64,000 bases of DNA from Candidatus Omnitrophota bacterium (GTDB lineage Bacteria; Omnitrophota; Gorgyraeia; Gygaellales; JBFMHM01): contig JBFMHM010000007.1 in NCBI GenBank assembly GCA_040753015.1, positions 2,076-66,075 of the forward strand, written 5' to 3'. Position numbers and translations under genes: made by a program. Of the stretch, positions 20,017-60,979 are shown piece after piece (positions within the stretch are counted from its first letter, which is position 1; the number at the start of each line of letters is the position of its first letter). The notes under the pieces were generated by a model. That model saw only the letters and a list, made by a program, of their open reading frames with translations. It had not been told where the DNA came from and made no database searches.

Positions 20017-20177
20017 TAATCTGCGTAATGTAGCGTGATGAGCACCTTGAGCAACAGCTAATTCTTCGATATTTGTAATTCCTTGAAGTTGGTATTTTTT
20101 AGGAAGGGCTTTATGTGTTAAGTCGGGATAACTAATATTCCAATGATGTTCATTGGCAAGCTCACTAATCGCATTGG

Positions 20178-35682: not shown

Positions 35683-35684
35683 AA

Positions 35685-36853: not shown

Positions 36854-36865
36854 CTTAGTTATAAT

Positions 36866-41255: not shown

Positions 41256-41891
41256 TTAGGGGAATAAAGGGTTCTCCTCTATTAATTTATGTTTAATCAT
41301 GTTGTAATAACTATCATCCCCATATTCCAACTTACGAAATATTGCCCAACTAACAAAATCAACCGCTTGTAAGCTTTTCTCTTCTGCTGGATTTTTTATC
41401 TCTATATTCAATTTTAATTTGTGAGTATTACCAATTTGATTTTTTAAATAAGAACTAAAATTTTCATTTAAGAATTTATTAGTTTCACGTTTAGATGCAA
41501 TTAAATGAATTGTTTCATTAAGTGGTATCAATTTTTTTGTAATTATTCTATCTAAAAGAATATTTGTTACATAATTATAGAGAACAGATTTTTCGTTTTG
41601 TAATTTTATATAAACTCGTTTCTTATTTAAATAAATTGTCATTAAATCACAATCTTTTGATGCGATTTTCTTTAATAATCGCTGTCGCGTAATAGGTTCT
41701 TCTTCTGTAGCATGTAAAACACTATTAACATTCTTATGCTTATTTCTTAAAATACGATGTGCCAATCTGACACACTTTTCTATCTGACGCTTATTTCTTG
41801 TAAATAAAAAAGTAATTACGAAGAATTTTGTAGTTTTTTTCTTAGAAAAATCAAAACCTAAATCGCCTGATTCATCTAAATAAATATACAT
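41256..41891 (-). CDS. DUF3800-like protein (211 aa)
   Basis: N-terminal 'MYIYLDESGDLGF' DUF3800 signature. Confidence 0.5.
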   Translation of the reverse strand: MYIYLDESGDLGFDFSKKKTTKFFVITFLFTRNKRQIEKCVRLAHRILRNKHKNVNSVLHATEEEPITRQRLLKKIASKDCDLMTIYLNKKRVYIKLQNEKSVLYNYVTNILLDRIITKKLIPLNETIHLIASKRETNKFLNENFSSYLKNQIGNTHKLKLNIEIKNPAEEKSLQAVDFVSWAIFRKLEYGDDSYYNMIKHKLIEENPLFP

Positions 41892-44444: not shown

Positions 44445-44900
44445 TTAAACTTTAATTTTTTGTGCCTGGGCCTCTTTTTCAATAATACCTTTTATTATCT
44501 TTAGATTATCCTGGGAATGCTTATTTATAAAGCCTTCCACGGTTTTATCATCAAACTTAGTTTTTTCATCCATTTCAAAATGCTGAATCCAGGTCATTTC
44601 TACTCCGTCAACTCTTTGCGTATAAAGCCAAATAATCTTCATAAATTTAAAAGGGAATTTTGGTTCTTGCCGTTCTGCATAAGTAAAGAATTTATCCTTA
44701 AATAATAATCTCCATGATTGCCAGCTTTTACTTTCATCATCAGTAAGACGAAATATAATTTTATTATCTTCCCTTTTAAGAATTTCTGCTTTTTTATATT
44801 CTCCACCAAAAAGCTCAGTCCAACGCGGAATATCATTTGTAATATCAAATACCATCTCATACGATGCATTGATTATAATTGAGTTACTTGTGTGTCCCAT
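44445..44900 (-). CDS. SRPBCC (polyketide cyclase/dehydrase-like, Bet v1 fold) protein
   Basis: About 150 aa with the start pattern of the Polyketide_cyc2 family. It sits in the KS/ACP cluster. Confidence 0.5.
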   Translation of the reverse strand: MGHTSNSIIINASYEMVFDITNDIPRWTELFGGEYKKAEILKREDNKIIFRLTDDESKSWQSWRLLFKDKFFTYAERQEPKFPFKFMKIIWLYTQRVDGVEMTWIQHFEMDEKTKFDDKTVEGFINKHSQDNLKIIKGIIEKEAQAQKIKV

Positions 44901-46670: not shown

Positions 46671-47461
46671 ACAATTCCTACCGCCCTAATCCAACTTGCA
46701 CCAACATCCTTAATCTTTATCGGAAAGCAAATAAATTTAAAGCCGCTTGCTGGCAATTTATCTAAATTAGCCAAACGTTCGATATGTGCATACTCACGCT
46801 TGCGGCCATAAAAATGCGCTGGCCAAAGATATTTACTATCACGTGTACGCATAAAATCCGCCATCATAAATTTATAAGGCCGGTCAAAGCCTAGCGTGTC
46901 AATACCAATAATATTTACGCCAAAATTTAAAATATATTCAATTGCATCTACGCTAACACCGGGATAATTTGTTAAATAATCACGGGTTCCAAAAAATTTA
47001 TCTGCACCAGTGCGTAATAAAACAACATCGTTTTTCTTAATCTGATAATTTATTTTTTTTAAAGCATTTTCTATATCCGCTTTTAAAATAAGCTCCCCGG
47101 GTAATTTGCTAGTTAAATCTAAAACAACCCCGTCTGAAAAACACCATTCTAAAGGAATAGCTTCAGCAGTTTTTGAAGCGCGATTTTCTGACTTTGTTCC
47201 ATAGTGAAAAGAAAAATCAATATGTGTGCCAATATGTACCGGGCAATGCACAGTTTCGAGTGATAAAAACTCCTCATCTGGCAAATCCGTAGGTTTAATA
47301 ATGCGTTTACCCAGAAAAAAATCTATTTTCCCTTTTAATGTGCCCTTCATCATTACCCAATTTAAATGCTGGACACCTTCTTTATGTCCAAGCCTCTCTA
47401 TACTAAAAGGATGGACCTCTGGCGCTCTCTCGTCTATAGGTAAACTTAAATCGATTATCAT
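46667..47461 (-). CDS. Cyclase-family protein (kynurenine-formamidase-like fold)
   Basis: 'HIGTHIDFSFH' metal-binding His cluster typical of PF04199. Confidence 0.65.
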   Translation of the reverse strand: MIIDLSLPIDERAPEVHPFSIERLGHKEGVQHLNWVMMKGTLKGKIDFFLGKRIIKPTDLPDEEFLSLETVHCPVHIGTHIDFSFHYGTKSENRASKTAEAIPLEWCFSDGVVLDLTSKLPGELILKADIENALKKINYQIKKNDVVLLRTGADKFFGTRDYLTNYPGVSVDAIEYILNFGVNIIGIDTLGFDRPYKFMMADFMRTRDSKYLWPAHFYGRKREYAHIERLANLDKLPASGFKFICFPIKIKDVGASWIRAVGIV

Positions 47462-47694
47462 ACAATTTTTTTAGAATCTATTATTTTTGCTAAATCACTG
47501 ACTGTTGCAGAACGGGGAATTTCGCGTGCAGTTAATTTTACATTAAATTTTTTCTCTAGAGCAATCGCAAGCTCAACCATTTCTGTTGAGTCCATAGAAA
47601 CATCTTCGTAAAGACGCGAATCTAAATTAATTTCATTTGGTTTTAGCTTTAATAAGTTTATTATAATTCCTCTAATTTCTTCAGCTACTGACAT
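47458..47694 (-). CDS. acpP: Acyl carrier protein
   Basis: 78 aa; phosphopantetheine-attachment site 'DVSMDSTEMVELA'. Confidence 0.8.
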   Translation of the reverse strand: MSVAEEIRGIIINLLKLKPNEINLDSRLYEDVSMDSTEMVELAIALEKKFNVKLTAREIPRSATVSDLAKIIDSKKIV

Positions 47695-47708: not shown

Positions 47709-48941
47709 TTAAACTTTTCCTAGCACTAATACTGCATTTATGCCGCCCCGGCCGCGCGAAATTATAAGTGCTTTATCTATCTTTGTTTCACGCGCCTGGT
47801 TAGGTACATAATCTAAATCACACTCTGGATCAGGCGTTTGATAATTTATTGTTGCAGGGGCTAAGTTATTTTGCATTGCTAATATTGTACTAATTGTATC
47901 GACTGCTCCTGACGCACCAAGCAGATTTCCAAACATTGCCTTTGGAGCACTCACGGGGATTTTTTTAGCTCTATCTTTAAATACTTTCTTAATTGCTCGT
48001 GTTTCAGAAATATCTGCTTCATAAGTTGCAGCACCATCTGCGCAAATATAGTCAATTTCATCTGGAGTTACATTTGCATCTTTTAAAGCAAGCTCAATTG
48101 CAGCAGCAAGGCCAGCACCATTAATATCTGGCTTAATCCTATCTACTCCATCACAATTAGTTGCAAAACCTAAAATTTTTGCATAAATTTGCGCGTTTCT
48201 CTTTTTGGCGCGTTCCAAACTCTCTAAGATTAATACGCCAGAACCTTCTCCAATTGCAAAACCGTTCCTATCTTTGTCAAATGGTTTATAGGCAGTTTGC
48301 GGGCTATCATTACCATCTGACAACACTCCTGAAGTATTACAGCATAAAAGAGCATAAGGAGTAACTGGCGCCTCCATACCGCCAGCCAAAATTAAATCAA
48401 GTTTATTTTGTTTCAAAACTTTTCTAGCATAACCTATTGCCTGTAGAGAACTTGCGCGATCGCTAACAACTGTTTTACTATAACCTTTAATTTCATAATA
48501 TATTGAGATTTGCCCTTGCGGCGCAGCAGGAAACCAAGCGCTTGCCATATAGGGGCTTACACCTTCACGGCCCTCTAGATAAAGATCTCGCAATTCAGTT
48601 TCTGCATAAAGCCATCCGCCGATAGCATTACCCATAAAAATTCCGGTCCTATCTTTATTCTCATTTTGCATATCAATATTTGCATCGGTTAAAGCAGCCT
48701 CCGAAGCAACTAAAGCCATATGAGAAAATAAATCAATTTTTTTAAGCAGGCGCTCGGATAAATGGGTATAAGTATCCATGCCTTTAACTACGCCGGCAAT
48801 ATGCGATCTATAAAGCGAAGCATCAAACCGTTCAATTTTTGATATGAAAGACCTGCCGAATTTTATATTTGCCCAAAATTGGCGCTTACCCACACCTGAT
48901 GGGCTTACTACACCTAAACCTGTAATAACAACTTCATTCAT
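47709..48941 (-). CDS. Ketosynthase-like protein lacking the catalytic Cys/His/His (chain-length-factor / KS-beta-like)
   Basis: Thiolase-fold KS homologue. At the active-site position it has 'VVSDRASSLQAIGYA' where the partner has 'ISTGCTAGSDSVGFS'. Its His positions read 'ICADGAATYEAD' and 'MFGNLLGASG' where the partner has 'NAHGSSTRQND' and 'MIGHPLAAAN'. Confidence 0.75.
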   Translation of the reverse strand: MNEVVITGLGVVSPSGVGKRQFWANIKFGRSFISKIERFDASLYRSHIAGVVKGMDTYTHLSERLLKKIDLFSHMALVASEAALTDANIDMQNENKDRTGIFMGNAIGGWLYAETELRDLYLEGREGVSPYMASAWFPAAPQGQISIYYEIKGYSKTVVSDRASSLQAIGYARKVLKQNKLDLILAGGMEAPVTPYALLCCNTSGVLSDGNDSPQTAYKPFDKDRNGFAIGEGSGVLILESLERAKKRNAQIYAKILGFATNCDGVDRIKPDINGAGLAAAIELALKDANVTPDEIDYICADGAATYEADISETRAIKKVFKDRAKKIPVSAPKAMFGNLLGASGAVDTISTILAMQNNLAPATINYQTPDPECDLDYVPNQARETKIDKALIISRGRGGINAVLVLGKV

Positions 48942-50197
48942 TCATATCTCCTTAAAACAAGCGATGAGTGGATCCCAGAAAACCCGCTGCTTGTTTTTAA
49001 AATTGTATTAACTTTTTTGGATATCGCAACATTCGGTATATAATTTAAATCGCATAGCGGATCCTTTACCTCTTGATTAATCGTCGGAGGGAGTATATTT
49101 CTTTCAAAAATTAAACAACAAATAACTAATTCGACTGCATTTGCTGCAGCAAGCGGATGGCCAATCATCGATTTAAAAGAACTTATTGGAAGTTTATAAG
49201 CATAGCTGCCCAAAACTGATTTATAAGCACTTGTTTCAAAAATATCATTTTGTCTGGTTGATGAGCCATGGGCATTAAGATAATCTATTTCTTCTGGTTT
49301 CACTTTAGCATCTTCCAAAGCAAGTTTCATACAATTTTCCATCGGCTTACCATCTTGTGGTAAATCAGTCATATGATATGCATTGCAAGTTGTACCAAAA
49401 CCTAAAATTTCAGCATATATATGTGCGCCGCGCGCTTTAGCGTGATTTAATTCTTCTAAAACCAAAATTCCACAACCTTCACTTAAAACAAAGCCGTCTC
49501 TTTCTCCGTCAAACGGACGAGATGCTTTTTTGGGAGCACTATTTCTAACTGATAAAACGCTGATTACATCAAACGCGCCAAATGTAATCGGGGTGATGGG
49601 CGCTTCACTTGCCCCAGCAATCATAATATCTGCTTCATTATTTTGAATTGTCTCAAAAGAGAACCCTACGGAATCGCTTCCAGCAGTACATCCTGTTGAA
49701 ATCGTAGTACAAATTCCTTTTAGGCCATACCTACCCGAAATTTCCGAAGACGGCGTGTTAAACATTGCTGCGTCATATAAATCAGGCCTTGCCTTAGATG
49801 GATCAATTGCATCAACGCCATTATTTGTAACACGTAAAAATTCTTCTTCCATATACTTTGTACCACAGATAGCATTAGCTAAAGCAACACCTATTCTTGT
49901 TTTATCTATCTTATTAAAATCAATTTTAGAATCAATTAACGCTTCTTTTGCACTAACAACAGCAAACTGAACATATCTATCCATACGGTTAATCTCATCA
50001 TTGGTCAATCCTAATTCCTTTGGATTAAAATCGAACGCTTGAGCTGCAATCTTTGTGTTAAATTTAGATACATCAAAATTTGTTACTAGATCTACTGCTG
50101 AAACTCCTCCTGACATTCCCTTCCAAGCGTTTTCGCGGCCAATACCGTTTGGTGAAACTACACCTATGCCCGTAATAACAACACGACGTTTAGACAT
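48938..50197 (-). CDS. Beta-ketoacyl-ACP synthase (KS-alpha type, catalytic)
   Basis: Active-site Cys 'STGCTAGSD' and His motifs 'AHGSST' / 'GHPLAAA'. It overlaps the downstream CLF-like gene by 4 nt. Confidence 0.85.
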   Translation of the reverse strand: MSKRRVVITGIGVVSPNGIGRENAWKGMSGGVSAVDLVTNFDVSKFNTKIAAQAFDFNPKELGLTNDEINRMDRYVQFAVVSAKEALIDSKIDFNKIDKTRIGVALANAICGTKYMEEEFLRVTNNGVDAIDPSKARPDLYDAAMFNTPSSEISGRYGLKGICTTISTGCTAGSDSVGFSFETIQNNEADIMIAGASEAPITPITFGAFDVISVLSVRNSAPKKASRPFDGERDGFVLSEGCGILVLEELNHAKARGAHIYAEILGFGTTCNAYHMTDLPQDGKPMENCMKLALEDAKVKPEEIDYLNAHGSSTRQNDIFETSAYKSVLGSYAYKLPISSFKSMIGHPLAAANAVELVICCLIFERNILPPTINQEVKDPLCDLNYIPNVAISKKVNTILKTSSGFSGIHSSLVLRRYE

Positions 50198-50214: not shown

Positions 50215-50784
50215 TTATTCTTTTCTCTTTACTCTAAATACAATATTGCCACCATCCGGGCAAGTTACCGTATCGACGCTATTTGGGCTAGACATAAAAT
50301 GAAATTCCGCTCCAAAGTTAAGCGCAAACATTGCCGGAAATGCGGTGTGAAATGCTGCACCACAAAATCCAGGGATACATTTTAGGCCTTTAGTTTCCCA
50401 TTTATCACCCATCTTGTAACCAAACACACATTTACCTTCTTTAACAACCTCAATAATCATATCCTTTGGATTTGGAGCGTGATATTCTGAATCTTTAGGA
50501 ATAATCTCGACATTCCCATTATCATCTAAAACCTCGATTTTAAATTCGAGTTTTCCTCCATCAGGGCAGGTTGTTAAAATTGAGCGTTGATTATCCCGAA
50601 ATGGAAATTTTGCACCAAAAGTCAAAGCATAAGCACAAGGAAATATTGAATGCATTGCCCCAAGGCAGAAGTGCTTTGGCGCATGTGTAAAATCTTCTAG
50701 AATAAACTCATCGCCGACTTCATAATTATGATAGCAATATTCATTCTTCTTATTTACAGTTAATTTAAGTTTAGGAAATTTCAT
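50215..50784 (-). CDS. Tandem-duplicated small Cys/His-rich protein (two ~90-aa halves), TIGR04076-like
   Basis: First half: 'APKHFCLGAMHSIFPCAYALTFGAKFPF...TCPDGGKLEFKIE'. Second half: 'GLKCIPGFCGAAFHTAFPAMFALNFGAEFHF...TCPDGGNIVFRVK'. Confidence 0.5.
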   Translation of the reverse strand: MKFPKLKLTVNKKNEYCYHNYEVGDEFILEDFTHAPKHFCLGAMHSIFPCAYALTFGAKFPFRDNQRSILTTCPDGGKLEFKIEVLDDNGNVEIIPKDSEYHAPNPKDMIIEVVKEGKCVFGYKMGDKWETKGLKCIPGFCGAAFHTAFPAMFALNFGAEFHFMSSPNSVDTVTCPDGGNIVFRVKRKE

Positions 50785-51787
50785 CCTGTTCCTCTTTAAA
50801 TATTTCTTTTAAGTCTTTTTCATTAAAGAATTTTCCGGAATTCTCAACATTATGAACAAGTTTAACTATTTTTTTATTTAAAGGTGCGTTGAGATTTAAG
50901 CCATCAGCCAAACTAACTATCTCACCATTAATATAATCAATTTCTGACGGGCGGCGGCGCTTTATACTCTGTAGAATTGAACCGTATACGGGTTCTTTAC
51001 TTAAATTTACCATCATACTAGAGAAAATTTTAGCAGCTTCATCTTCACTAACAGTAATCAACCTTAAAAATCTTTCTTTAGGAAATTTAGGTAAAGATAC
51101 GAGCATTGCTCCACTTGCCTCTATGATATCAATACCTTCTCGAATTAAATTAATCGCAATCTTACATATATCTAGATCGCTGAATACTTCCTGCATACTC
51201 TTACCTAGAATTGCCGGAATGCAATTATTGAAATTTATAAAAAGTTTAGTCCATTTCATCCCGATTATTTCTTGAGTAATATATAGTTCGAAAGCTCCTT
51301 CTGCCGCCTGCCTTATTTTTTCTAAATTCTCAATTTTGCCTTCTTTAAACGGCAGGCCAATAATCCATTCCCCTTCAAAATTATGAATAACGCGGCCTTC
51401 TTCAATACAAGTTGAGCCAAACATAACAATACTTGAAACTATATTCTTTTTATCCACAAACAAAGAAGTAATTACATCAGACGATACACCATTTTGTATG
51501 GTTAAAATTACTGTGTCCTTTAAAAAATCTGCATTTGTTATAAGTGCTTCTTTTAAATCTTGCGTTTTAGTAGCAAGGACTATCAAATCTTTCTTTTCAT
51601 TTAGTTTGATATCGGCATCAAGAAAAATATTTTTTCGTCCGCGCACACCCTCAATAATTAAACCGTTATTTTTTATTGCCTGAATATTTTTGGGGCGGCC
51701 AACCAAAGATACATCATGACCTTTTTCTTTTAAATAACCACCGACTAAAGCCCCAATTGCGCCTGCACCGATTACACCAATTTTCAT
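50771..51787 (-). CDS. 2-dehydropantoate 2-reductase (PanE/ApbA) family NAD(P)-dependent oxidoreductase
   Basis: N-terminal Rossmann 'MKIGVIGAGAIGALVGGYL' and an ApbA_C domain. Confidence 0.7.
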   Translation of the reverse strand: MKIGVIGAGAIGALVGGYLKEKGHDVSLVGRPKNIQAIKNNGLIIEGVRGRKNIFLDADIKLNEKKDLIVLATKTQDLKEALITNADFLKDTVILTIQNGVSSDVITSLFVDKKNIVSSIVMFGSTCIEEGRVIHNFEGEWIIGLPFKEGKIENLEKIRQAAEGAFELYITQEIIGMKWTKLFINFNNCIPAILGKSMQEVFSDLDICKIAINLIREGIDIIEASGAMLVSLPKFPKERFLRLITVSEDEAAKIFSSMMVNLSKEPVYGSILQSIKRRRPSEIDYINGEIVSLADGLNLNAPLNKKIVKLVHNVENSGKFFNEKDLKEIFKEEQDEIS

Positions 51788-52086
51788 TTACTTATTCCAA
51801 ACCCATATTTTTTATAATCGAATCCTGCTTCTTCCATCACTTTTATCATCATTGCCTCAAACGGCTTTGGCACATCATTAAAAAAGGCCTTTACAACATC
51901 TTGTTCTTCTACTATGGAAGAATTTCTCTCTTGCGCAAGCTTAATCGCCTTCCCAGAAACAAGGCTTTCGGCAACCTTACGATGAAACAGAGGCATCTTA
52001 CTAATCATTAAATCAAATTTTCTCTTTGTAACTTCATCCCAGGTAATATCAGACATATAATTCTCCTTTTGTTGCAGATGCCTCAA
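51784..52086 (-). CDS. Small hypothetical protein (100 aa), possibly a PCP_red-like domain as found at the C-terminus of B12-rSAM BchE-type enzymes
   Basis: The ORF overlaps both neighbours (translational coupling). The family assignment is tentative. Confidence 0.35.
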   Translation of the reverse strand: MRHLQQKENYMSDITWDEVTKRKFDLMISKMPLFHRKVAESLVSGKAIKLAQERNSSIVEEQDVVKAFFNDVPKPFEAMMIKVMEEAGFDYKKYGFGISK

Positions 52087-53515
52087 ACTTAGAGATATTA
52101 TTCATAAAATCTTTAACGCAAAGTTTTACAAGATCAGAATAATTACTCTCCATAATTCTATGTATCCTAGAGGCTTTAGAGAAAAATTCTCTCATACACC
52201 AAGCACCTAACCTGCCAAGCTCTTCAACAGACAAATGATTTGTTGGAATTACCGGATGTAAGAAATCCCAAGTTTTTAAATCAATTTTTTGGGGATCAAA
52301 TAATTTTTGTTTTAACGCCTTCTTCCAAACAGGTGATCCGGGAACAGGTGTTACAAAATCAATTGCTAAAATATCCGGGTCAGCTTCTTCAGCAAAATTA
52401 AACCTATCTTTAATGCGCGCCTCGCTATCATCTTCAAGACCAATTAATATTGTACCAACAGTTGCAATATCGTTTTTACGTAGCTCTTCGATTGTTTGTT
52501 TGATTTGATTAACTGTAATACCTTTGCCGATACGTTTAAGCTCGTCATCACTAGAAACCTCAATACCAACCAACCCCATAAAAAGCCCAGCTTTTTTCAT
52601 TAAACCAAATATATCAATTTGTTTTACCCAATCATCGGCACGGCCTAAAATTACCCATTTAATTGCCAGCCTACGGCGCAAAATTTCATTGCAAGTCTCA
52701 ATAACCATATTTTTATCGACGTTAAAAGCATCGTCCTGAAATACTACAACTTTTATACCAAATTCTTTTTCTAAATATTCCAACTCATCTACGATCTTAT
52801 TACCTTTTTTCGAACGCCAAGAAAGAAAATCGCGAGGAGATCTTGGGTCATACTGTGACCATTCGTAACAAAATGAGCACCCGCCAGGGCAACCCCTTGA
52901 CGTAGAAAGCTCTGCAAATGGCTTCCAATAAGTATGCCCCACATATTTATCCATAGGAAATAAATCATATGCTGGCATAGGTAAAATATTTATATCTCTA
53001 ATTAACTCTCTATGTTTTCCAGCTATAATTTGATTGCCCTTACGAGATGCTAAACCATTAATACCTGAAAAATCTGTCTTTTTATCTTCTAATGCCTTAA
53101 CTAATTCTTCTAATGTAAGTTCTGCCTCTCCAATCATAACAAAATCTATATAAGAATGGCCTTCTAAAGTTTCTTTATAAATAGATGAATACCATAGGCC
53201 ACCAACAGCAATTTTAATATTCGGCATCATCCCTTTTATTGCCTTTGCAATTTCATTAAAATGCCAAATAACCGCAAGCCCGCCAGTCGAATGCAAAATC
53301 TCACCCAGCACAACTAAATCTGGATTATAATTTTTTACTTTTTCTAAAATTTGATCTTTACTAAGATTATCTGCCCGGCCGTCAATAACGCTAACCTCGC
53401 TAATTTTTTTCTCTCTTAAATATGCTGCAAGCTGTGCATAATATTGATTAGGTGCGCGATGTTCACCATGAGTTGCCCAAGCCCCAATGTTTGGCATAAC
53501 AAATAAAACTTTCAT
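52049..53515 (-). CDS. B12-binding radical SAM enzyme no. 2 (488 aa)
   Basis: 'STSRGCPGGCSFCYEW' CxxxCxxC and an N-terminal B12-binding-like domain. It is paralogous to 41891..43336. Confidence 0.8.
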   Translation of the reverse strand: MKVLFVMPNIGAWATHGEHRAPNQYYAQLAAYLREKKISEVSVIDGRADNLSKDQILEKVKNYNPDLVVLGEILHSTGGLAVIWHFNEIAKAIKGMMPNIKIAVGGLWYSSIYKETLEGHSYIDFVMIGEAELTLEELVKALEDKKTDFSGINGLASRKGNQIIAGKHRELIRDINILPMPAYDLFPMDKYVGHTYWKPFAELSTSRGCPGGCSFCYEWSQYDPRSPRDFLSWRSKKGNKIVDELEYLEKEFGIKVVVFQDDAFNVDKNMVIETCNEILRRRLAIKWVILGRADDWVKQIDIFGLMKKAGLFMGLVGIEVSSDDELKRIGKGITVNQIKQTIEELRKNDIATVGTILIGLEDDSEARIKDRFNFAEEADPDILAIDFVTPVPGSPVWKKALKQKLFDPQKIDLKTWDFLHPVIPTNHLSVEELGRLGAWCMREFFSKASRIHRIMESNYSDLVKLCVKDFMNNISKFEASATKGELYV

Positions 53516-53519
53516 TCTA

Positions 53520-54992
53520 TTATCCTCCGAACCAGCTTGACACTAATGATTTTCCACCACTAGTTAGATCAATATTAATATGTTTAGTTTGTGTATATTC
53601 CAACAAACCATCTCTACCTAATTCACGGCCAATACCACTTTGTTTATAACCACCAAAAGGCGTTTGATTAAAAAACATTCCATAGGTATTAACCCAAACC
53701 GTGCCACTACGTAATTTCTTGCTCACAATATTTGCACGCAATAAATCTTTTGTCCAAATCATTGCTGCAAGGCCATAGATAGTGTCGTTAGCGATTTCAA
53801 TTGCCTCATCTTCCGAAGAAAACTTAATTATTGATAACACGGGCCCAAAAATTTCCTCACGGGCAATGCGCATATTATTTTTTACATTATCAAAAATTGT
53901 CGGGGCTAAAAAATAACCCTTATTAAAATCTTTTGGAATATTTCCGCCGCACAAAAGCCGCGCTTCTTTCTTGCCTATCTCTATATAATCTAAAACTCTC
54001 TGCCTCTGCTGTTTTGAAACTAGCGGGCCAATATCGCTAGAGTAATCTAAAGCTGGGCCAAGTTTTAATTTCTTGGTTTTTTCAATAAGTAATTCAATAA
54101 ATTTATCGTAAATTGTATCTTGTAATAAAAGCCGCGAGCCAGCAACACACATTTGCCCCTGATTCATAAAAATTGCTGACATTGTTCCACCTACAGCTGC
54201 CTCTAAATCGCAATCATCAAATACAATGTTGGGAGATTTTCCACCTAATTCTAAAAATACTTTTTTTACATTGTTTGAAGCAAGGCTCATTACTTCTTTA
54301 CCTACCTCAGTTGAACCAGTAAAAGCAACCATATCAACGCTAGTATTCTGCGCTAATTCTTTTCCGATTTCTGCGCCGCTACCAGTTACAATATTAAACA
54401 CGCCTTTTGGTAAACCGGCTTTATCAATTATTTTTGCAAGTTCAAGACTGGTTAGACTTGCCAATTGTGACGGTTTAAAAACAATCGTATTTCCACAAGC
54501 AAGCGCTGGAGCAATTTTCCAAGCTGCCATAATTAAAGGATAATTCCACGGTGTAATTGAAGCAATAACTCCAAGCGGTTCTCTGACAACTGTACTCTGC
54601 CCACCAAATGGGACAGAAACTTGCTCGCCTTTTAACTCCGATTCAACTTTAGAAAAATAATCAAAACATTCTGCAGCCGTTGGCACATCGATAAATGTAG
54701 TTTGTTTAATTGTTTTTCCGGTATCGCGCGCCTCAAGCTCAGCTAACTTTTGTGCATTTTCTAAAATTCCTTCAGAAATCTTTTTTAAATATTCGGCGCG
54801 CTCGCTAAATGCTAAATTCGACCAATCACCTTTATCAAAAGTAGTCCTTGCAAAAGAAATCGCCTGCTTAACTAAATTATTGTCGGCCTTTGGAATTTCG
54901 GCAATAACTTCTTCAGTGGATGGATCGATCGAAGAAATCACTTCTTTCGTATCTAACCAATTACCATTAATATATAGTTGATATTTTTTCAT
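53520..54992 (-). CDS. NAD(P)-dependent aldehyde dehydrogenase
   Basis: 'FTGSTEVGK', 'ELGGKSP' and catalytic Cys 'GQMCVAGSR'. Confidence 0.9.
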   Translation of the reverse strand: MKKYQLYINGNWLDTKEVISSIDPSTEEVIAEIPKADNNLVKQAISFARTTFDKGDWSNLAFSERAEYLKKISEGILENAQKLAELEARDTGKTIKQTTFIDVPTAAECFDYFSKVESELKGEQVSVPFGGQSTVVREPLGVIASITPWNYPLIMAAWKIAPALACGNTIVFKPSQLASLTSLELAKIIDKAGLPKGVFNIVTGSGAEIGKELAQNTSVDMVAFTGSTEVGKEVMSLASNNVKKVFLELGGKSPNIVFDDCDLEAAVGGTMSAIFMNQGQMCVAGSRLLLQDTIYDKFIELLIEKTKKLKLGPALDYSSDIGPLVSKQQRQRVLDYIEIGKKEARLLCGGNIPKDFNKGYFLAPTIFDNVKNNMRIAREEIFGPVLSIIKFSSEDEAIEIANDTIYGLAAMIWTKDLLRANIVSKKLRSGTVWVNTYGMFFNQTPFGGYKQSGIGRELGRDGLLEYTQTKHINIDLTSGGKSLVSSWFGG

Positions 54993-55171: not shown

Positions 55172-56146
55172 TTATTCTACCGGTACATTTTGCCACAACT
55201 CAAAAAGCCTGGCAAACTGAGCATACCAACGCGATATCTTGGCAAAGTCACCTTGTAATTTTAATTTTTTCTGGGTAGTTGCAACAAACGGGTCAAGCTC
55301 TCTGTTAAAAATCATCTTCCAGTAGCTCTTTGGCCCAGAAATTAAAAATTCTACTTTTTCATCATCGCCGACATTTATAATTTTTCCCTCTCTAAACTCA
55401 AAACTATAAACTTTATTATCTTCGTCTAATTTTACAGCTAAATTTAAAGTTAAATTTGTGCGCTTGCCTTCAGACTGAAATTTATCATCGGTATTTACCA
55501 AACGGACAATTTCATCAATCTGCTCTTTCGAAAAAAGTTCATATCTTTTCGTTGAGATATTTTTTTGCACAGTTTCTTTTGCTTGTCCTTGATTAGAATA
55601 TAATTTTTTAATTATATCCATTTCAACCATTTCATCTAAAATTTGGATTAGATAAAAAGCATCTTTTAAAGTTTTACCGATTGCCACAACTCCATGATTT
55701 TTTAAAACAACAATATTGCTTTTTTTAAGCGCCTCGATTACTGGATTAATATCGCTAACTGTTGGCGTAAGCTGTTCAATTACCGGAACATCGCCAACAT
55801 AAAGTTTTGTTTCAAAAGTAAGTGGGGTAATTTTGTCATTTACGCTAAAATACGCCACAACTTTTGGCGAATGCGAATGCACAACGCAATTTGTATCAAT
55901 ATTTTTATAAATACCTAAATGCAGCGACAATTCTGATGTAGGATTTTTTTTACCATCGAGCAATTCTCCGGAGAGATTAATTTTTGCAATATCATTATCG
56001 AATAACTCACCCAAAGAACTATCGTGCGTAGTAATAAATACACTATCATTATCTTTAGCGCTGATATTTCCCGAGCGACCACAGACAAGATTCTTGCCCC
56101 ACAATAAGCTACCGATTCGTATTATATTTTGCTTGATATCGTCCAT
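55172..56146 (-). CDS. Class II (FucA/MtnB-type) aldolase fused to a C-terminal SCP2-like domain
   Basis: N-terminal domain has 'GNISAKD' and 'VVHSHSP' Zn-ligand histidines. The last ~110 aa look SCP2-like ('LAVKLDEDNKVYSFEFREGKI...KLKLQGDFAKI'). Confidence 0.7.
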   Translation of the reverse strand: MDDIKQNIIRIGSLLWGKNLVCGRSGNISAKDNDSVFITTHDSSLGELFDNDIAKINLSGELLDGKKNPTSELSLHLGIYKNIDTNCVVHSHSPKVVAYFSVNDKITPLTFETKLYVGDVPVIEQLTPTVSDINPVIEALKKSNIVVLKNHGVVAIGKTLKDAFYLIQILDEMVEMDIIKKLYSNQGQAKETVQKNISTKRYELFSKEQIDEIVRLVNTDDKFQSEGKRTNLTLNLAVKLDEDNKVYSFEFREGKIINVGDDEKVEFLISGPKSYWKMIFNRELDPFVATTQKKLKLQGDFAKISRWYAQFARLFELWQNVPVE

Positions 56147-56149
56147 ATA

Positions 56150-56268
56150 GTTTTAAATCCCAATTATCCAATGCCCAATGACAAATTAATTCCCAATTCA
56201 CCAATTACCAATTGAATAATTGGACATTGGTCATTTATTTGACATTGGGATTTGGTCATTGGTCATTT
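56150..56268. repeat. CCAAT/ATTGG-rich imperfect palindrome (~120 bp)
   Basis: Left arm 'cccaattatccaatgcccaatgacaaat...ccaattcaccaattaccaattg'. Right arm 'caattggacattggtcatttatttgacattgggatttggtcattggtcatt'. Confidence 0.6.
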
Positions 56269-56271
56269 TGT

Positions 56272-57195
56272 TTATATCAATACTGCCTTTGTTACTAATT
56301 CCCTTGGCGTTACGTCAAATCCCGGATAATACGCCTTAATTCCCTTTGGTGCAATGCGAATATTTTTTATTTTTGTAATCTCTTCGCCACTTCTAATTTC
56401 AATTGGAATATCCTTGCCTGTTTTTATATTAGGGCTTGGATGTTGTGTTAATACATAAAAAGGAATATTAAAATATTTTGCTAAAATTGCAATTTGAAAT
56501 GTTCCAATTTTATTTGCAAAATCACCGTTCATTGCCGAGCGGTCAGAGCCAACCACAACCATATTTACTAAACCCTTTTCCATAACATGCGCCACGGCAT
56601 TATCCGTAATTAAAGTTACATCAAAACCAGCACGCGCCAGTTCCCACGCAGTTAAACGTGCACCTTGAAAATATGGCCGGGTTTCTGTTGCGATAAACTT
56701 AACTTTTTTACCCGCTTTTTTGCAAAAATTTGCCGCCTCAACTAATTCACCGCTAACATTACAATGTGTTAATACAGTTGCTCCATCGGGAATAAAAGAA
56801 GCAAGCGTATTTGCACGTGTTAAACGTTTATTTTTTATATCAATAAGCATTCCCTCAATACTTCTTGTCAAATCTTTACCTTCAGCGTGCCACTTTAAAA
56901 ATAGAGATGTAATGTCACTAAAAGGAAATGTTGGCCGCGATTTATTTAAAGCTACAGCAACTTTTTTTAAATGTTCTGTGCTACTATCTTTTTTAAATTC
57001 AAGTAAAAATGTATATAACACGCACAAATATTGGCCAAAGGCGCGCGTCTTCATTGTCTTAATTGCACGCACAACATCCAAATAATTCTTTGCCTTAATA
57101 TATTTAACTTTATTTGGAATTAAAGTTTCATCGAGAATATAGAGTGCATTCCCTTTTAAACTAACCGGCCAAAAAAGCGGTGAGTGTTTTGTCAT
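56272..57195 (-). CDS. mtnA: MtnA/eIF-2B-family sugar-1-phosphate isomerase (5-methylthio- or 5-deoxy-ribose-1-phosphate isomerase)
   Basis: 'LTHCNVSGEL', 'TETRPYFQGARLTAWEL', 'VVGSDRSAMNGDFANKIGT' and 'IPFYV'. Confidence 0.8.
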   Translation of the reverse strand: MTKHSPLFWPVSLKGNALYILDETLIPNKVKYIKAKNYLDVVRAIKTMKTRAFGQYLCVLYTFLLEFKKDSSTEHLKKVAVALNKSRPTFPFSDITSLFLKWHAEGKDLTRSIEGMLIDIKNKRLTRANTLASFIPDGATVLTHCNVSGELVEAANFCKKAGKKVKFIATETRPYFQGARLTAWELARAGFDVTLITDNAVAHVMEKGLVNMVVVGSDRSAMNGDFANKIGTFQIAILAKYFNIPFYVLTQHPSPNIKTGKDIPIEIRSGEEITKIKNIRIAPKGIKAYYPGFDVTPRELVTKAVLI

Positions 57196-57941
57196 TTTCC
57201 TGCTAATGTTTTTACTGCTGCCAGCGATACTTTCACTATAGAGCTCTCAGCATCATAATATTTTGGGTTAATGAAACCAAGCTCGCCAGTAATTAAGTTA
57301 TCACTTACAGCTAAGATGCATCCTGCCCTAACCTGGTTTAACTTTGCAATTGTAAGCATTGTACTTGAAACCATATCTACCGCAATTGCCCCTTTTACAC
57401 GTTTCTCTTCAACAAGTTCTCTTGTTTCGCGAAGCAATGCATCAGTCACCCACACAGTGCCTAAATGATATTTTACACCTAAACTTTCACAAGCTTTAAC
57501 TAAAGCGCCTGTCACATTTTTATCTGCTTCTGATTTAAAATCTTCCTTAACATAATAAGGAGTTACTCCATCCCCCCTAATTACATCTTTTACAATTACT
57601 ACATCGCCAACCTGTATTTTTTCATCCATTGCACCGCAAGAACCGGCCCTTATAATATTTTTAGTACCTGCAGCACAAAGAATTTCTGCACAAATTGCCG
57701 AATCAGCAGAATACCTGCCGCCGTTTCCCGTAGTAATTTTTATTCCCTCATATTCACCGTTATACATTGTGTAATCAAAAAATGAAAACTTTTTTACTGT
57801 ATTAGTTAGATTTTTTAATACTGCTTGTGAACGCTCTACAGTGCCAGGAATAATTGCATATTCTGCTAAATCTCCCGGGCGTAAATTTAACATATAAAGC
57901 ATTTCTTTTGCTGACATATGAACATCTTTCTGCATCTGCAT
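57192..57941 (-). CDS. Family-1 nucleoside phosphorylase (PNP/UDP/MTA phosphorylase fold)
   Basis: PNP_UDP_1-like 'IIPGTVERSQ...KITTGNGG' pattern, 249 aa. Confidence 0.7.
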   Translation of the reverse strand: MQMQKDVHMSAKEMLYMLNLRPGDLAEYAIIPGTVERSQAVLKNLTNTVKKFSFFDYTMYNGEYEGIKITTGNGGRYSADSAICAEILCAAGTKNIIRAGSCGAMDEKIQVGDVVIVKDVIRGDGVTPYYVKEDFKSEADKNVTGALVKACESLGVKYHLGTVWVTDALLRETRELVEEKRVKGAIAVDMVSSTMLTIAKLNQVRAGCILAVSDNLITGELGFINPKYYDAESSIVKVSLAAVKTLAGK

Positions 57942-57956: not shown

Positions 57957-58677
57957 CTATTTCAATTCTTCCTGTATTGGTAATTTTAATGCACTTGCAT
58001 CAGGAATTTTCCCAGATAAGTACTTAGGTAATTTTTTAGTAAGATAATATTCAGCGATACCTACTGGTTTTTTAACACTACGCAATGCGTACTCTACAAC
58101 GATATCATCTTTATCTGCACATAAAATAATACCTATTGACGGATTCTCATCTTTTAACTTTATTTGCTCATCTAAAAGTTGCAAATAAAAATCCATTTTA
58201 GCAGCATATTCTGGTTCAAATTTACCCGTTTTAAGTTCAATCGCCACAAGAGACTTTAATTCACGATTAAAAAATAAAAGGTCTATGAGAATATTTAATA
58301 TAGAATTCACGCTCTCTATCATTAGCTATTTTTTCCATAATTAAGAGATTATGCCCCCATGGTATTTCTGCAACAAGTTGTTGCAGAAATGGTTTATTTT
58401 TATATTCTTCGTAGAATCTCCGCATATTCCAAACATTTCTTTCCGAAAACCCATAAGTTTGTGGAAATACCTTTTTCAAATCGCGGGCAAGCAATACAAT
58501 AACATTATCACCCCATTTATATTTTTGCTGACGTTCGAAAATACTTTTACCAATATCCCAATAAAGTTTTATAAGCTCTTTATTAACCGTCTTTATTGCC
58601 CGAATGCGTGAAGCAACAATACGCGATTTAATCTCACTCAAAAATTTAATATATTCTTTATTAACAATACTACTCAT
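57957..58677 (-). pseudogene. Frameshifted DUF1016/YhcG-family PDDEXK nuclease, split into two overlapping ORFs
   Basis: ORF 58267..58677 is the N-terminal part ('...EREFYIKYSHRP'). ORF 57957..58322 carries the nuclease core ('LVAIELKTGKFEPEYAAKMDFYLQLLDE...IGIILCADKDDIVVEYAL'). They are in different frames and overlap by 56 nt. Confidence 0.65.
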
Positions 58678-58689: not shown

Positions 58690-60189
58690 TTATCCCTTTA
58701 ATGCTTTTTTATCTATCTTATCTGTTCTTGTTTTGGGTAACCTATCACGAATTTCTATATAATGCGGTACTTTAAAATTTGCTAAATGTGAACGGCAAAA
58801 ATGCCTGATATCATCTTCGGATAGTTTTACGCCTTCCTTAAAACTTACAACCGCTTTAACTACCTCGCCTCGTAACTTATCCTCTACGCCAATTACTGCC
58901 ACCTCATTAATCTCGGGAATTTTGTGGATTACATTCTCAACTTCTGTAGCATAAACAATCTCCCCTCCTACCTTAATCATTTCTTTAATTCGGCCCATAA
59001 TATAGAGGTAGCCATCTTCATCAATTTTACCTAAGTCTCCGGTATGAAACCAACCGTTACGCATTACACGTGCAGTTTCTTCCTCGTCTTTGTAGTAGCC
59101 AACCATCACCGCCCAGCTTCTCATTGTAATTTCGCCAACTTCACCACACGACAATTCCTTATCATCTTCATCAACAATTTTTAATTCCACCCAAGGAGCA
59201 GGTAAACCAACAGAGCGAACTTTCGGGCTGCCCATTGGTATTACTGTGTTTGGCGGTGAGGTTTCGGTCATTCCCCAACCATGTAATAATTTTGCCTTTG
59301 GGCAATATTGCATAAACCTCTGTAAAACTTCTGGAGAGCTAGGAGCACCAAAAACATTTACCCAGCGAATACTAGATAAATCATATTTTTCGAATTCTTT
59401 CAACTGTAAAAGTGCAATATACATCGAGGGAACAAGATGAAAGCAGGTAACTTTGTAAGTTTCGATATTGCGTAAAAATTCAATTGGGCTAAAACGGTCC
59501 ATTACAATTAAAGTAATGCCATAATAAATGCAATTTTGCAAATAAACCAAACCGCCAAAATGTGTCAACGGCAATGCGCAAAGCTTAACATCTTTGTCAG
59601 ATAAATCTACAAAATAATCCATTGCTTGAGGCGAACCATCAAGATGCCTATAATTTAAAAGCACACCTTTGGGCCGTCCGGTTGTGCCAGAAGTATAGAA
59701 AATTAAAGCATTATCTGTTTCTTCTACTTTAACATTCGGTTCTTTAATCTCACCACGGCTTAAAAAATCTGAGAATAAATAAAATCCATTATGTTTTTCT
59801 TCATAAGAAACAATTACGTCTTTAAGGGTAGGAATTCTCTCCTTAAGGCTCAACACCGTTACACCGTCTTTTGGCCGAATAATTAAAAGTTTTGCCTCGG
59901 AGTGCGTAATACAAGAAACTAATTCTTCTTCTTTGAGCATATAATCAAGAGGAACAACTACCGCACCTAAACAAAAAAGGGCTAAGTAACTATAAATACA
60001 CTCTAGAGAATTAGGCATAAATAAAGCGACTTTGTCGCCTTTCTGAATACCAATTTCTTGCAGACTATGGCAAAATTTGTAAACTTGCTCTAAAAGTTCG
60101 CCAAAAGTAACGGTTTTTTCTTTAAATACTAACGCGGGTTTGTTTGGATACTTTTTTGCTTTATCCTTAAGTATTTCTTTAACTTGCAT
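58690..60189 (-). CDS. AMP-dependent acyl-CoA synthetase/ligase
   Basis: 'IFYTSGTTGRPKGV' AMP-binding motif, 'GWGMTE' and 'HTGDLG'. Confidence 0.85.
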   Translation of the reverse strand: MQVKEILKDKAKKYPNKPALVFKEKTVTFGELLEQVYKFCHSLQEIGIQKGDKVALFMPNSLECIYSYLALFCLGAVVVPLDYMLKEEELVSCITHSEAKLLIIRPKDGVTVLSLKERIPTLKDVIVSYEEKHNGFYLFSDFLSRGEIKEPNVKVEETDNALIFYTSGTTGRPKGVLLNYRHLDGSPQAMDYFVDLSDKDVKLCALPLTHFGGLVYLQNCIYYGITLIVMDRFSPIEFLRNIETYKVTCFHLVPSMYIALLQLKEFEKYDLSSIRWVNVFGAPSSPEVLQRFMQYCPKAKLLHGWGMTETSPPNTVIPMGSPKVRSVGLPAPWVELKIVDEDDKELSCGEVGEITMRSWAVMVGYYKDEEETARVMRNGWFHTGDLGKIDEDGYLYIMGRIKEMIKVGGEIVYATEVENVIHKIPEINEVAVIGVEDKLRGEVVKAVVSFKEGVKLSEDDIRHFCRSHLANFKVPHYIEIRDRLPKTRTDKIDKKALKG

Positions 60190-60305
60190 AAATTCGCCTC
60201 CAAATATAGTAAAATTTTACTAATCTAATTTTTATATATTGTATATTATCCAGGAATTATGTCAAGAAAAATTTAGAAGATCTAAGAAAAGTGTTTTTTA
60301 TTTAG

Positions 60306-60722
60306 CTAAATATCAATAATATTTTTTTTAATAAATTTCTCAATTGCTTTTACGGTTTCATCTTTTAATTGTGGTGGGCTTTGAGCAATCCAAACAGTAA
60401 AGTTATATAGTCCTTGAACATCTACTTCTATCCATTTTTTATTTCTATATAAGAGAACTAATAAACTAGTCAAAGCAATCCTTTTATTGCCGTTCCGGAA
60501 AGGATGATTCTTAATCATCAGATAAAAGAATATACTTGCCTTGGAGATCAAGCTAGGATACAGAGATTTACCACCAAAACTTTGGAAAGGTACGGCTAAA
60601 CAGCTCTCTAGGATATTTACAAAACGTGTAGAAAAATCCGGAATTGGTTCGTTGAAAGAAAGCATGTCTTGCGCCATCTCAAAAGCAATGAATTCTATTT
60701 CTTTAACATTAATTTGCTTCAT
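60306..60722 (-). CDS. doc: Doc-family (Fic-fold) toxin
   Basis: 'HPFRNGNKRIALTS' Doc motif; 138 aa. Confidence 0.8.
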   Translation of the reverse strand: MKQINVKEIEFIAFEMAQDMLSFNEPIPDFSTRFVNILESCLAVPFQSFGGKSLYPSLISKASIFFYLMIKNHPFRNGNKRIALTSLLVLLYRNKKWIEVDVQGLYNFTVWIAQSPPQLKDETVKAIEKFIKKNIIDI

Positions 60723-60979
60723 TCTTTTCCTAAAAGCCTAAGAACTTCACCATAATCTTTGATTACCTTCTTAACCGCGTTCTCAATTTCTGTTTTGTCT
60801 TCTTCTTTTAACTCTTGGCTAAATATAGCCGTAAGCTCCTTTTTAGAAACAGCATAGTTTCTACCAATTCTTATTGCTTTTATTTTTCCAGCCTTAACTT
60901 TTTTAAAAACAGCTACTCTTGTAATTCCCAAAATTTTTGCAAGCATCGGTAATGTTATATACTCATTTTTCTCTTCCAT
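60719..60979 (-). CDS. HTH (excisionase/MerR-like) DNA-binding protein; putative antitoxin for Doc
   Basis: 'ITLPMLAKILGITRVAVFKKVKAGKIKAIRIG' HTH. It overlaps the doc start by 4 nt. Confidence 0.6.
   Translation of the reverse strand: MEEKNEYITLPMLAKILGITRVAVFKKVKAGKIKAIRIGRNYAVSKKELTAIFSQELKEEDKTEIENAVKKVIKDYGEVLRLLGKE

Follow-up and report, generated by a model that had tools for sequence, protein, structure and literature searches.

Dihydroxyacetone phosphate (DHAP) shunts have been described in several forms, namely MtnP-MtnA-Ald2 in Rhodospirillum rubrum, DrdK-DrdI-DrdA in Bacillus thuringiensis and MtnK-MtnA-Ald2 in extraintestinal pathogenic E. coli (ExPEC) (PMC10986504, PMC6079011). 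These shunts begin with phosphorolysis (or hydrolysis followed by a kinase); an MtnA-family enzyme then isomerises the sugar 1-phosphate, and a class II aldolase splits the product into DHAP and an aldehyde. The modules are known as devices for salvage, detoxification or use of a carbon source. Here we describe a gene trio of the same kind in a 64-kb stretch of DNA (the window) from a Candidatus Omnitrophota metagenome-assembled genome (MAG), where it is instead a fixed part of a ketosynthase operon. A first-pass annotation of this DNA had presented the trio as a complete shunt for 5′-deoxyadenosine (5′-dAdo) lying next to a radical S-adenosylmethionine (SAM) operon. The genes are indeed where it placed them, as three co-directional minus-strand open reading frames (ORFs) for a phosphorylase (57941-57192), an isomerase (57195-56272) and an aldolase (56146-55172), in that order of transcription and with matches to PF01048, PF01008 and PF00596, respectively, much stronger than chance would give. 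The phosphorylase stop and the isomerase start overlap as ATGA. The trio and the genes that directly flank it encode the following proteins and domains:

58690..60189, minus strand: AMP-forming acyl-CoA ligase, first conserved biosynthetic gene (NF004837, 478 bits against a cutoff of 476)
57192..57941, minus strand: putative DeoD-like purine nucleoside phosphorylase of the hexameric family, proposed step 1 (249 aa; PF01048 PNP_UDP_1, E 1.8e-32)
56272..57195, minus strand: putative MtnA-family pentose-1-phosphate aldose-ketose isomerase of a divergent subfamily, proposed step 2 (307 aa; PF01008 IF-2B, E 9.7e-54)
55592..56146, minus strand: class II metal-dependent DHAP-type aldolase domain, aa 1-185 of a 324-aa protein, proposed step 3 (PF00596, E 2.1e-36)
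55175..55537, minus strand: SCP2 sterol-carrier-type domain, aa 204-324 of the same protein (PF02036 at aa 221-303, E 2.6e-8, 34.5 bits against 21.3)
53520..54992, minus strand: non-acylating NAD(P)+ aldehyde dehydrogenase (ALDH), proposed step 4 (PF00171, E 6.6e-179)

An invariant block inside a ketosynthase operon

To place the trio in context we scanned one genome per species and found relatives of the aldolase::SCP2 protein in at least 254 genomes, from which 80 loci were fetched. Window proteins were mapped onto these loci by tblastn, and each neighbour was counted only in loci with sufficient flanking DNA. The full operon was seen in the 80 loci examined, which are labelled either Omnitrophota, a phylum without cultured members, or 'uncultured Planctomycetales', the latter being automatically named MAGs. 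The aldolase::SCP2 protein of the window finds a 100% identical counterpart in a Candidatus Omnitrophota MAG. Its homologues, at about 50% identity, number more than 1,000, and those with a named source are all Omnitrophota; among the best 80-120 matches of each homologue search, the contexts seen were those of Omnitrophota orthologues.

Across these 80 species-level genomes synteny is rigid at about 50% protein identity. The operon begins with a PadR gene in some loci, followed by the acyl-CoA ligase, phosphorylase, isomerase, aldolase::SCP2, ALDH and a B12-binding radical SAM enzyme (B12-rSAM). It continues with DUF2621, an ApbA-type reductase, in some loci a TIGR04076 protein, a ketosynthase (KS), a partner resembling a chain-length factor (CLF), an acyl carrier protein (ACP), a cyclase, in some loci a second radical SAM enzyme, and an SRPBCC protein. 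In the window this second part reads:

52049..53515, minus strand: B12-binding radical SAM enzyme, BchE/HpnJ-like (PF02310 and PF04055; BchE model 221 bits, under cutoff)
51784-52086, minus strand: DUF2621, conserved downstream block
50771-51787, minus strand: ApbA/PanE-type reductase, conserved downstream block
50215-50784, minus strand: duplicated TIGR04076 protein, conserved downstream block
48938-50197, minus strand: FabF-like ketosynthase KS1, with the catalytic Cys in TGCTAG
47709-48941, minus strand: Cys-less CLF-like partner KS2, with SDRASS at the position of the catalytic Cys
47458-47694, minus strand: ACP (PF00550)
46667-47461, minus strand: PF04199 cyclase, distal operon
44445-44900, minus strand: SRPBCC polyketide-cyclase-like protein, distal operon
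43336-44232, minus strand: Amidohydro_2 protein, distal operon
41891-43336, minus strand: second B12-rSAM, distal operon, 10 kb beyond the first

A Cys-bearing KS with a Cys-less partner (both carrying the N- and C-terminal ketoacyl-synthase domains) and a discrete ACP give the operon a type II polyketide synthase (PKS)- or fatty-acid synthase (FAS)-like character. The neighbour counts bind the trio closely to this machinery. The isomerase is present in all 73 countable loci and the phosphorylase in 71 of 72, the ligase lies directly upstream of the phosphorylase in 66 of 66, and the ALDH is adjacent to the aldolase in 71 of 71. Further downstream, DUF2621 (62/62), ApbA (57/57), KS (49/49), CLF (45/47) and the cyclase (39/43) are similarly constant, and SRPBCC is present in many loci. 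The B12-rSAM gene is found in only 59 of 65. Moreover, two complete operons with full 10-kb flanks, those of related loci L008 and L069, have no radical-SAM gene within 10 kb; a Band-7 gene occupies its position in the former, and SnoaL-like, SDR and Amidohydro_2 genes stand in its place in the latter. The trio is therefore an invariant internal block of a ketosynthase operon of about 13 genes in Omnitrophota, rather than a neighbour of a radical-SAM operon, and the radical SAM gene is a frequent but dispensable member of it. The ALDH just downstream (54992-53520) and both B12-rSAM genes (53515-52049 and 43336-41891) that the first-pass annotation had listed are real. Its functional coupling of the trio to radical SAM chemistry does not correspond to a conserved feature, because linkage is tighter to the ligase, the ALDH and the KS/CLF pair than to the B12-rSAM. 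The SCP2 domain at the aldolase C terminus, the upstream ligase, and the downstream KS, CLF, ACP, cyclase and SRPBCC genes had escaped it altogether.

Some operons hold additional genes. A 230-aa ORF lies between the phosphorylase and the isomerase in L008 (7851-8543) and at the same position in L007; it has an N-terminal hydrophobic segment, possibly a signal peptide, and a weak match to a Cys-rich CGP-CTERM family. Both of these loci are without a B12-rSAM gene and carry a Band-7/SPFH gene there instead. No informative family matches were obtained for this ORF in L008 or for the other extra ORFs (241, 154 and 105 aa) found inside some operons. A literature search returned no description of the operon, of DUF2621 or TIGR04076, of an aldolase-SCP2 fusion, or of Omnitrophota polyketide or fatty-acid genes.

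Features of the enzymes

The phosphorylase scores under every NCBIfam equivalog cutoff and is placed by membership of superfamily PF01048 only. Assignment to the MtnP clade, which the first-pass annotation had raised, is contradicted by the methylthioadenosine phosphorylase (MTAP) model TIGR01694, with 19.3 bits against a cutoff of 274.85. The uridine phosphorylase and DeoD equivalogs come closer (TIGR01718, 124 against 280; NF004489, 89 against 230; TIGR00107, 79 against 232), and the HpnG and futalosine-hydrolase models, at 46.9 and 20 bits, are both far under cutoff. Among 70 orthologues the phosphate motifs PGxxxR and IRxGSCG are conserved, as is an S-D-N motif that aligns with Ser203-Asp204 of E. 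coli DeoD and contains the purine-type catalytic Asp; the T. thermophilus enzyme has S-N there. The alignment included E. coli DeoD and Udp as references, and its key motif was checked against PDB sequences. In uridine and purine nucleoside phosphorylases the second Glu of an E-M-E motif binds the 2′- and 3′-hydroxyls of ribose; all 70 orthologues have D-M-V in its place. The HMMER alignment sets Met17 of the protein opposite His8 of E. coli uridine phosphorylase, which we take to be the 5′-OH ligand. An MTA-accepting member of the hexameric family, the S. solfataricus MTAP (1jds), matches at 75.5 bits. Uridine phosphorylase, the best NCBIfam match, was rejected because the base-side motif is of the purine type S-D-N and the equivalog scores are far under cutoff. 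From these motifs we predict a purine nucleoside phosphorylase that is DeoD-like, has an atypical site for the sugar, and is not an MtnP. No kinase of the MtnK or DrdK type is encoded in the operon, the slot being filled by this DeoD-like PNP_UDP_1 protein.

The isomerase passes the broad model TIGR00524 (199 against a cutoff of 185.85) and falls under both salvage_mtnA (226.7 against 279) and NF004326 (255 against 271). Its closest relatives are the MtnA proteins of Thermotoga (196 bits) and Bacillus (158 bits). The catalytic Cys (in HCNVS) and Asp (in GSDR), equivalent to B. subtilis Cys160 and Asp240, are invariant, and residues that contact the 1-phosphate and the sugar are kept, namely two Arg residues (one in the first motif, one in RPT), the Gln of xQG (here FQG) and the Asn-Lys of ANKIG. 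The structure of PH0208 shows the 5-substituent touching the backbone just past the first Arg as well as the three residues after the catalytic Cys (PMC5789824), and the protein departs from its relatives at both places. In all 70 orthologues VRGAPAIG has become TRAFGQF, and CNAG(A/S)LAT..YGTALG has become CNVS followed by a 7-aa deletion. The Ser and Lys (Ser137, Lys138) that, with Lys240, bind the 5-phosphate in ribose-1,5-bisphosphate (R15P) isomerase are also missing, the C-x-S-K-A of that enzyme reading C-N-V-S-G here. Judged by these residues, catalysis is probably conserved but the specificity pocket is not. The predicted enzyme is probably no canonical MtnA/DrdI, and it is not an R15P isomerase. 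The latter, with the RuBisCO-type AMP pathway to which it would belong, was rejected by score (116 against 314 for TIGR00511) and by the missing 5-phosphate ligands; neither RuBisCO nor AMP phosphorylase is encoded in the window.

The aldolase domain has three metal-binding His residues (H90, H92 and H151), a catalytic Glu (E72) and a DHAP-phosphate site formed by N27 and S70/T71, and its fold matches FucA and DrdA, all as in class II enzymes. Among 77 sequences the His residues, E72 and N27 are invariant, S70 is nearly so, and position 71 is Ser or Thr (PTSE in the window, STE in the consensus). FucA-type models score best (122 bits), the haloarchaeal ribulose-1-phosphate aldolase model NF053831 gives 80 bits, and the MtnB models remain under cutoff (TIGR03328, 52.6 against 137; NF006672, 46 against 226). 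The view of the first-pass annotation that this protein is an aldolase thus stands, and an MtnB dehydratase was rejected by score and gene context. An AlphaFold 2 model of the whole protein has a mean pLDDT of 91.5, with both domains confident, a disordered linker at aa 186-200, and an SCP2 part folded as a five-strand, multi-helix alpha/beta domain. Foldseek against the PDB ranked FucA, YgbL and DrdA (6btd) about equal and did not discriminate the protein from an epimerase either; it returned no solved structure spanning both domains. Column identity is 0.76 in the SCP2 domain, reaching 0.87 over the last 45 aa, against 0.67 in the aldolase domain. As no other part of the protein is so strongly conserved, the SCP2 domain is likely to be functionally important, although SCP2 folds can be purely structural and are not always lipid binders, as reported for Eis (PMC5799202).

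Of the flanking enzymes, the ligase passes NF004837; this is a long-chain-fatty-acid--CoA ligase model, and the best PDB match of the ligase is FadD5 of M. tuberculosis. The best PDB matches of the ALDH are BetB, KauB and ALDH2/ALDH1B1, and its translation shows the Glu of ELGGKSP and the Cys of QMCVAGS; since it is of this non-acylating type, its expected product is a free acid. Gene content, gene order, their conservation, and the retention of the catalytic and phosphate-binding residues are matters of direct observation.

A proposed route from nucleoside to thioester

The chemistry that best fits these families and their order leads from a nucleoside by way of pentose-1-phosphate and pentulose-1-phosphate to DHAP and an aldehyde. 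To this extent the DHAP route of the first-pass annotation agrees with the data. Each of the three proteins nevertheless departs from its canonical DHAP-shunt counterpart, and 5′-dAdo is an assumed substrate, with which the sequences are compatible without establishing it. We propose, with confidence evenly divided between this reading and all others, that ligase, phosphorylase, isomerase, aldolase and ALDH make up a five-enzyme cassette that would turn a purine nucleoside into an aldehyde, an acid and finally a thioester that feeds the type II FAS/PKS-like operon. In the first step the phosphorylase would use phosphate to cleave a purine (adenine-type) nucleoside to pentose-1-phosphate, which the isomerase would convert to pentulose-1-phosphate. 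The aldolase would then cut between C3 and C4, releasing DHAP and an aldehyde X-CH2-CHO made up of C4′ and C5′ of the nucleoside and the 5′-substituent X. The adjacent ALDH would oxidise this aldehyde to X-CH2-COOH and so make the cleavage irreversible, and the ligase would activate the acid as a thioester that primes or otherwise feeds KS, CLF, ACP and cyclase. Aldol cleavage is by itself thermodynamically unfavourable (PMC6079011), which would explain why an ALDH is invariably adjacent; the ligase would be explained because a free acid requires ATP-dependent activation. Which way the flux runs, whether material passes from the ALDH by way of the ligase to the KS, and what X is are our inferences.

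Only H, as in 5′-dAdo, and SCH3, as in 5′-methylthioadenosine (MTA), are established physiological candidates for X. Because the parts of the enzymes that face the 5′-substituent are non-canonical and the SCP2 domain is conserved, X may be something else, possibly bulky or hydrophobic. Canonical MtnA and DrdI already accept both 5-deoxy and 5-methylthio sugars (PMC6079011), and for this reason the rebuilt pocket of the isomerase hints at a different X. On analogy, the logic of the DHAP shunt and of the fluoroacetate pathway is probably put to biosynthetic use here, more than to waste detoxification.

Several points weigh against the five-enzyme cassette as proposed. All retrieved loci hold the whole operon, so that a cassette feeding the KS is inseparable from one that travels with it. 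With X = H the product would be acetate or acetyl-CoA, which is abundant in cells and for which a dedicated supply would hardly be needed. The ligase belongs to a generic family in which sequence does not reveal the substrate. The phosphorylase is without the ribose-binding Glu of all members compared, which makes a nucleoside substrate itself uncertain, and a small aldehyde would give no reason for an SCP2 domain. Finally, radical-SAM genes of L008 and L069 could lie more than 10 kb away.

The trio might instead be a self-contained DHAP shunt that detoxifies or salvages 5′-dAdo (perhaps also MTA) from the B12-rSAM enzymes, with the ALDH disposing of acetaldehyde and with no biosynthetic role; we regard this as doubtful, though it deserves serious consideration. 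The trio and its order do match the phosphorylase variant of the known route for 5-deoxyribose disposal (PMC10986504, PMC6079011), and one or two B12-rSAM genes share the operon in 59 of the 65 loci, each enzymatic turnover yielding 5′-dAdo (PMC6079011). RlmN and MoaA, also encoded in the window, would be further sources, and methionine-salvage genes are absent as the first-pass annotation had reported: no mtnB/C/D/W/X homologue was found by the family scan among window ORFs of at least 100 aa, two giant ORFs at 12613-24137 lying outside that scan. Yet the trio is kept in the complete operons of L008 and L069 and never stands apart from ligase, ALDH or KS, and a housekeeping detoxifier would be unexpected in a specialised operon headed by PadR. 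The proteins, too, fit poorly. The phosphorylase is not of the MtnP type, the isomerase has lost the canonical 5-substituent loops although canonical enzymes handle both sugars, and an SCP2 domain more conserved than the catalytic one has nothing to contribute when a 5-carbon sugar is split to give acetaldehyde. Classical methionine salvage, in which the aldolase would be an MtnB dehydratase and the remaining pathway would be encoded elsewhere in the genome, is scarcely credible. An MtnA-family isomerase does adjoin a protein of class II aldolase fold, and MtnB shares that fold and its metal ligands (PMC3532061). The MtnB models, however, score far below the FucA-type ones, no mtnC/D/W/X gene was found in the scanned window ORFs or in any of 84 related loci, and ALDH and ligase neighbours would be senseless for a dehydratase route.

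Ordinary nucleoside catabolism, in which adenosine, inosine or guanosine would pass through ribose-1-phosphate and ribulose-1-phosphate to DHAP and glycolaldehyde, and the latter through glycolate to a glycolyl-thioester, we consider unlikely. To our knowledge no MtnA-family enzyme isomerises ribose-1-phosphate directly, and the haloarchaeal route runs via the 1,5-bisphosphate. Met17 opposite the presumed 5′-OH ligand His8 argues against a 5′-OH, and the SCP2 domain is again unexplained. There is nonetheless something to be said for such a pathway: DeoD-like enzymes are the general purine nucleoside phosphorylase type, polar residues in the isomerase loops (the Gln of TRAFGQF, the Ser and Glu of CNVSGEL) could bind a 5-OH, the ribulose-1-phosphate aldolase model matches the aldolase, and Omnitrophota are thought to consume host biomass (PMC10066038). 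Also to be weighed is the trimming of an adenosylated hydrophobic intermediate, a distinctly unlikely course of events in which a radical SAM enzyme would add a 5′-deoxyadenosyl group to an unsaturated lipid or polyketide in the manner of HpnH or MqnE. The phosphorylase would remove adenine, the isomerase and the SCP2-bearing aldolase would release C1-C3 as DHAP, and the chain, longer by two carbons, would emerge as an aldehyde to be oxidised and ligated. In the hopanoid and futalosine pathways there are precedents for an adenosyl group being added and its base then removed, and for C4′-C5′ being retained. Such trimming would suit a lipid-binding-type domain fused to the aldolase as its most conserved part, an isomerase whose 5-substituent elements are remodelled and opened by the deletion after the catalytic Cys, a Met at the position of His8 (presumably the 5′-OH ligand), a ligase within a long-chain-fatty-acid-CoA ligase model, and the HpnJ/HpnR-like matches of the radical SAM genes together with the weak HpnG match of the phosphorylase. 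But the operon has no enzyme of the HpnH or MqnE type, B12-dependent radical SAM enzymes are known as methylases and rearrangement enzymes and not as adenosylating ones, and the cassette is kept in operons with no radical-SAM gene at all within 10 kb. The HpnG and futalosine-hydrolase scores are far under cutoff, and the SCP2 fold could be structural, as in Eis. Stated more generally, adenosine would be a two-carbon donor, a 5′-C- or 5′-S-adenosyl hydrophobic intermediate being depurinated and cut such that C4′-C5′ stay on as an aldehyde, an idea to which we likewise attach a small probability; equally improbable in our estimation is the sequel, in which that aldehyde would be oxidised and re-activated for extension by KS/CLF. 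If this were true, the product would be a core Omnitrophota lipid or a quinone-like polyketide and not an antibiotic, which would explain wide conservation in the phylum. Very improbable, lastly, is a synthetic direction, in which DHAP and a (SCP2-bound) aldehyde would be condensed, isomerised and coupled to a purine, yielding a C5′-extended nucleoside or a long-chain ketose phosphate. Purine nucleoside synthesis is thermodynamically favoured. So is aldol condensation, and class II aldolases that use DHAP show promiscuity towards the aldehyde partner (PMC6079011). Against this, the invariant ALDH would destroy the aldehyde substrate, and no thioester reductase able to supply it is conserved in the operon.

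Should the five-enzyme cassette indeed supply a starter acid, a C2 unit taken from a nucleoside would for the first time be seen to enter a polyketide- or fatty-acid-like pathway outside halogenated metabolites, and the boundary between by-product salvage and biosynthesis would be blurred. Three uncharacterised enzyme subfamilies are defined here, one by the aldolase fused to SCP2, one by the DeoD-like phosphorylase without its Glu, and one by the MtnA relative with the deleted loop.

Surroundings of the operon and related systems

Around and within the operon the window contains the following further elements:

60306-60979, minus strand: Fic/DOC and HTH_17 pair, toxin-antitoxin-like, immediately upstream of the ligase where relatives carry PadR
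60238..60265, minus strand: candidate operon promoter, sigma-70-like TTGACA-16-TACAAT, 11/12 matches, 49 nt upstream of the ligase start
57957..58677, minus strand: DUF1016/YhcG PDDEXK nuclease gene, frameshifted into two overlapping ORFs, a window-specific insertion between ligase and phosphorylase
58267-58677, minus strand: PF17761 DUF1016_N profile match in this insertion
57957-58322, minus strand: PF06250 YhcG_C profile match in this insertion
56147..56271, minus strand: isomerase-aldolase spacer, long imperfect hairpin (125 nt, minimum free energy -41.9 kcal/mol, z = -4.64)
45348-46670, minus strand: Schlafen/AlbA_2-HATPase_c_4-wHTH gene, window-specific, interrupting the distal operon
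41256-41891, minus strand: DUF3800 gene, interrupting the distal operon

The promoter candidate is the best sigma-70-like site, though no more than a match to the consensus; sites of this kind are as numerous in the region as chance predicts. Counts of internal promoters and terminators between the trio and its neighbours likewise equal chance, with no terminator-like site in any intergenic gap. At Rfam gathering thresholds neither the window nor four related loci gave a riboswitch for SAM, S-adenosylhomocysteine (SAH) or cobalamin. In the related locus L003 a c-di-GMP-I-GGC riboswitch (639-732) lies upstream of a peptidase gene.

The spacer hairpin is built from CCAATGNCCAA-like repeats in inverted orientation, and none of 200 shuffles folds as well. 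It could be a palindromic mobile remnant or an element of mRNA processing or stability. Its position is the site at which other genomes carry a degenerate 160-aa copy of the C-terminal half of the isomerase, for example L003 at 9514-9996; this ORF occurs in about one quarter of related loci (including L009, L012, L017 and L021) and is absent from the window. At 27% identity and without the catalytic Asp, it may be a pseudo-enzyme subunit.

The operon of the window is intact, with several defence or mobile-type insertions, and all of its biosynthetic ORFs are undamaged. The YhcG/DUF1016 insertion has no counterpart in the 84 related loci and is not part of the system; the Schlafen and DUF3800 genes are not present in related loci either. 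A second Fic protein is encoded at 24295-25524. Just past the operon, 31698-40967 (minus strand) encodes the three subunits of a molybdenum hydroxylase (xanthine-dehydrogenase/aldehyde-oxidase family; MoCoBD, Fer2, FAD_binding_5) with XdhC, as well as the molybdenum-cofactor genes MoaA, MoaC, MoeA and a MogA-like gene, a set that is not conserved beside the operon in other genomes. The giant ORFs at 12613-24137 (minus strand) encode 2467 aa (from a TTG start) and 1319 aa, giant genes being a reported trait of Omnitrophota, and tRNA genes at 29851-29923 (minus strand) and 29994-30076 (plus strand) flank the leuS region.

Among described systems, a biosynthetic use of the same four-step logic, including an ALDH that yields X-CH2-COOH, is known from the fluoroacetate branch of Streptomyces cattleya, where 5′-fluoro-5′-deoxyadenosine leads to fluoroacetaldehyde and on to fluoroacetate. 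This 5′-fluorodeoxyadenosine route, mentioned in PMC6079011, is a precedent in its sequence of phosphorylase, isomerase, aldolase and aldehyde oxidation. Unlike that branch, the Omnitrophota operon conserves no fluorinase- or chlorinase-type SAM-cleaving enzyme and has a ligase and KS/CLF/ACP. Similarly, the haloarchaeal non-carboxylating pentose bisphosphate pathway combines a phosphorylase, an IF-2B isomerase and a class II aldolase to give DHAP and a C2 aldehyde. That route requires a ribose-1-phosphate kinase, an R15P isomerase and a phosphatase, whereas the isomerase described here scores far below the R15P model and has no Ser/Lys for a 5-phosphate. HpnG, in formation of the hopanoid side chain, and MqnB, acting on futalosine, are PNP_UDP_1-family enzymes for 5′-C-substituted adenosine, and part of the ribose carbon is retained. 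The phosphorylase matches their models only weakly and no adenosylating radical SAM enzyme was identified in the operon; moreover, the ribose would here be dismantled by isomerase and aldolase, which is not known from those pathways.

The SCP2 domain recalls UbiJ/UbiT and the tails of SCPx thiolase and MFE-2, in which an SCP2 fold is attached to or works with enzymes. Such accessory modules hold a hydrophobic substrate (PMC9499169, PMC4762939, 10.1101/587956), whereas neither the literature searched nor the solved structures yielded an SCP2 domain fused to a class II aldolase. The KS/CLF pair resembles the FabF2/FabF-mut heterodimer reported for the anammox ladderane cluster (bioRxiv 10.64898/2026.05.19.726425).

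The closest likeness is to the DHAP shunt itself, whose three types of reaction follow one another as proposed here and whose genes are clustered in one operon (PMC10986504, PMC6079011). Against that background the phosphorylase is DeoD-like rather than MtnP and has no ribose-binding Glu, the RGAPAIG and CNAGxLAT..GTALG elements of canonical enzymes are missing from the isomerase, and the aldolase is only about 24% identical to DrdA and carries SCP2. Typical DHAP-shunt clusters consist of the three genes with or without transporters (PMC6079011), whereas the Omnitrophota module is never free-standing or transporter-linked, being instead locked between ligase and ALDH within a KS/CLF operon of 13 or more genes.

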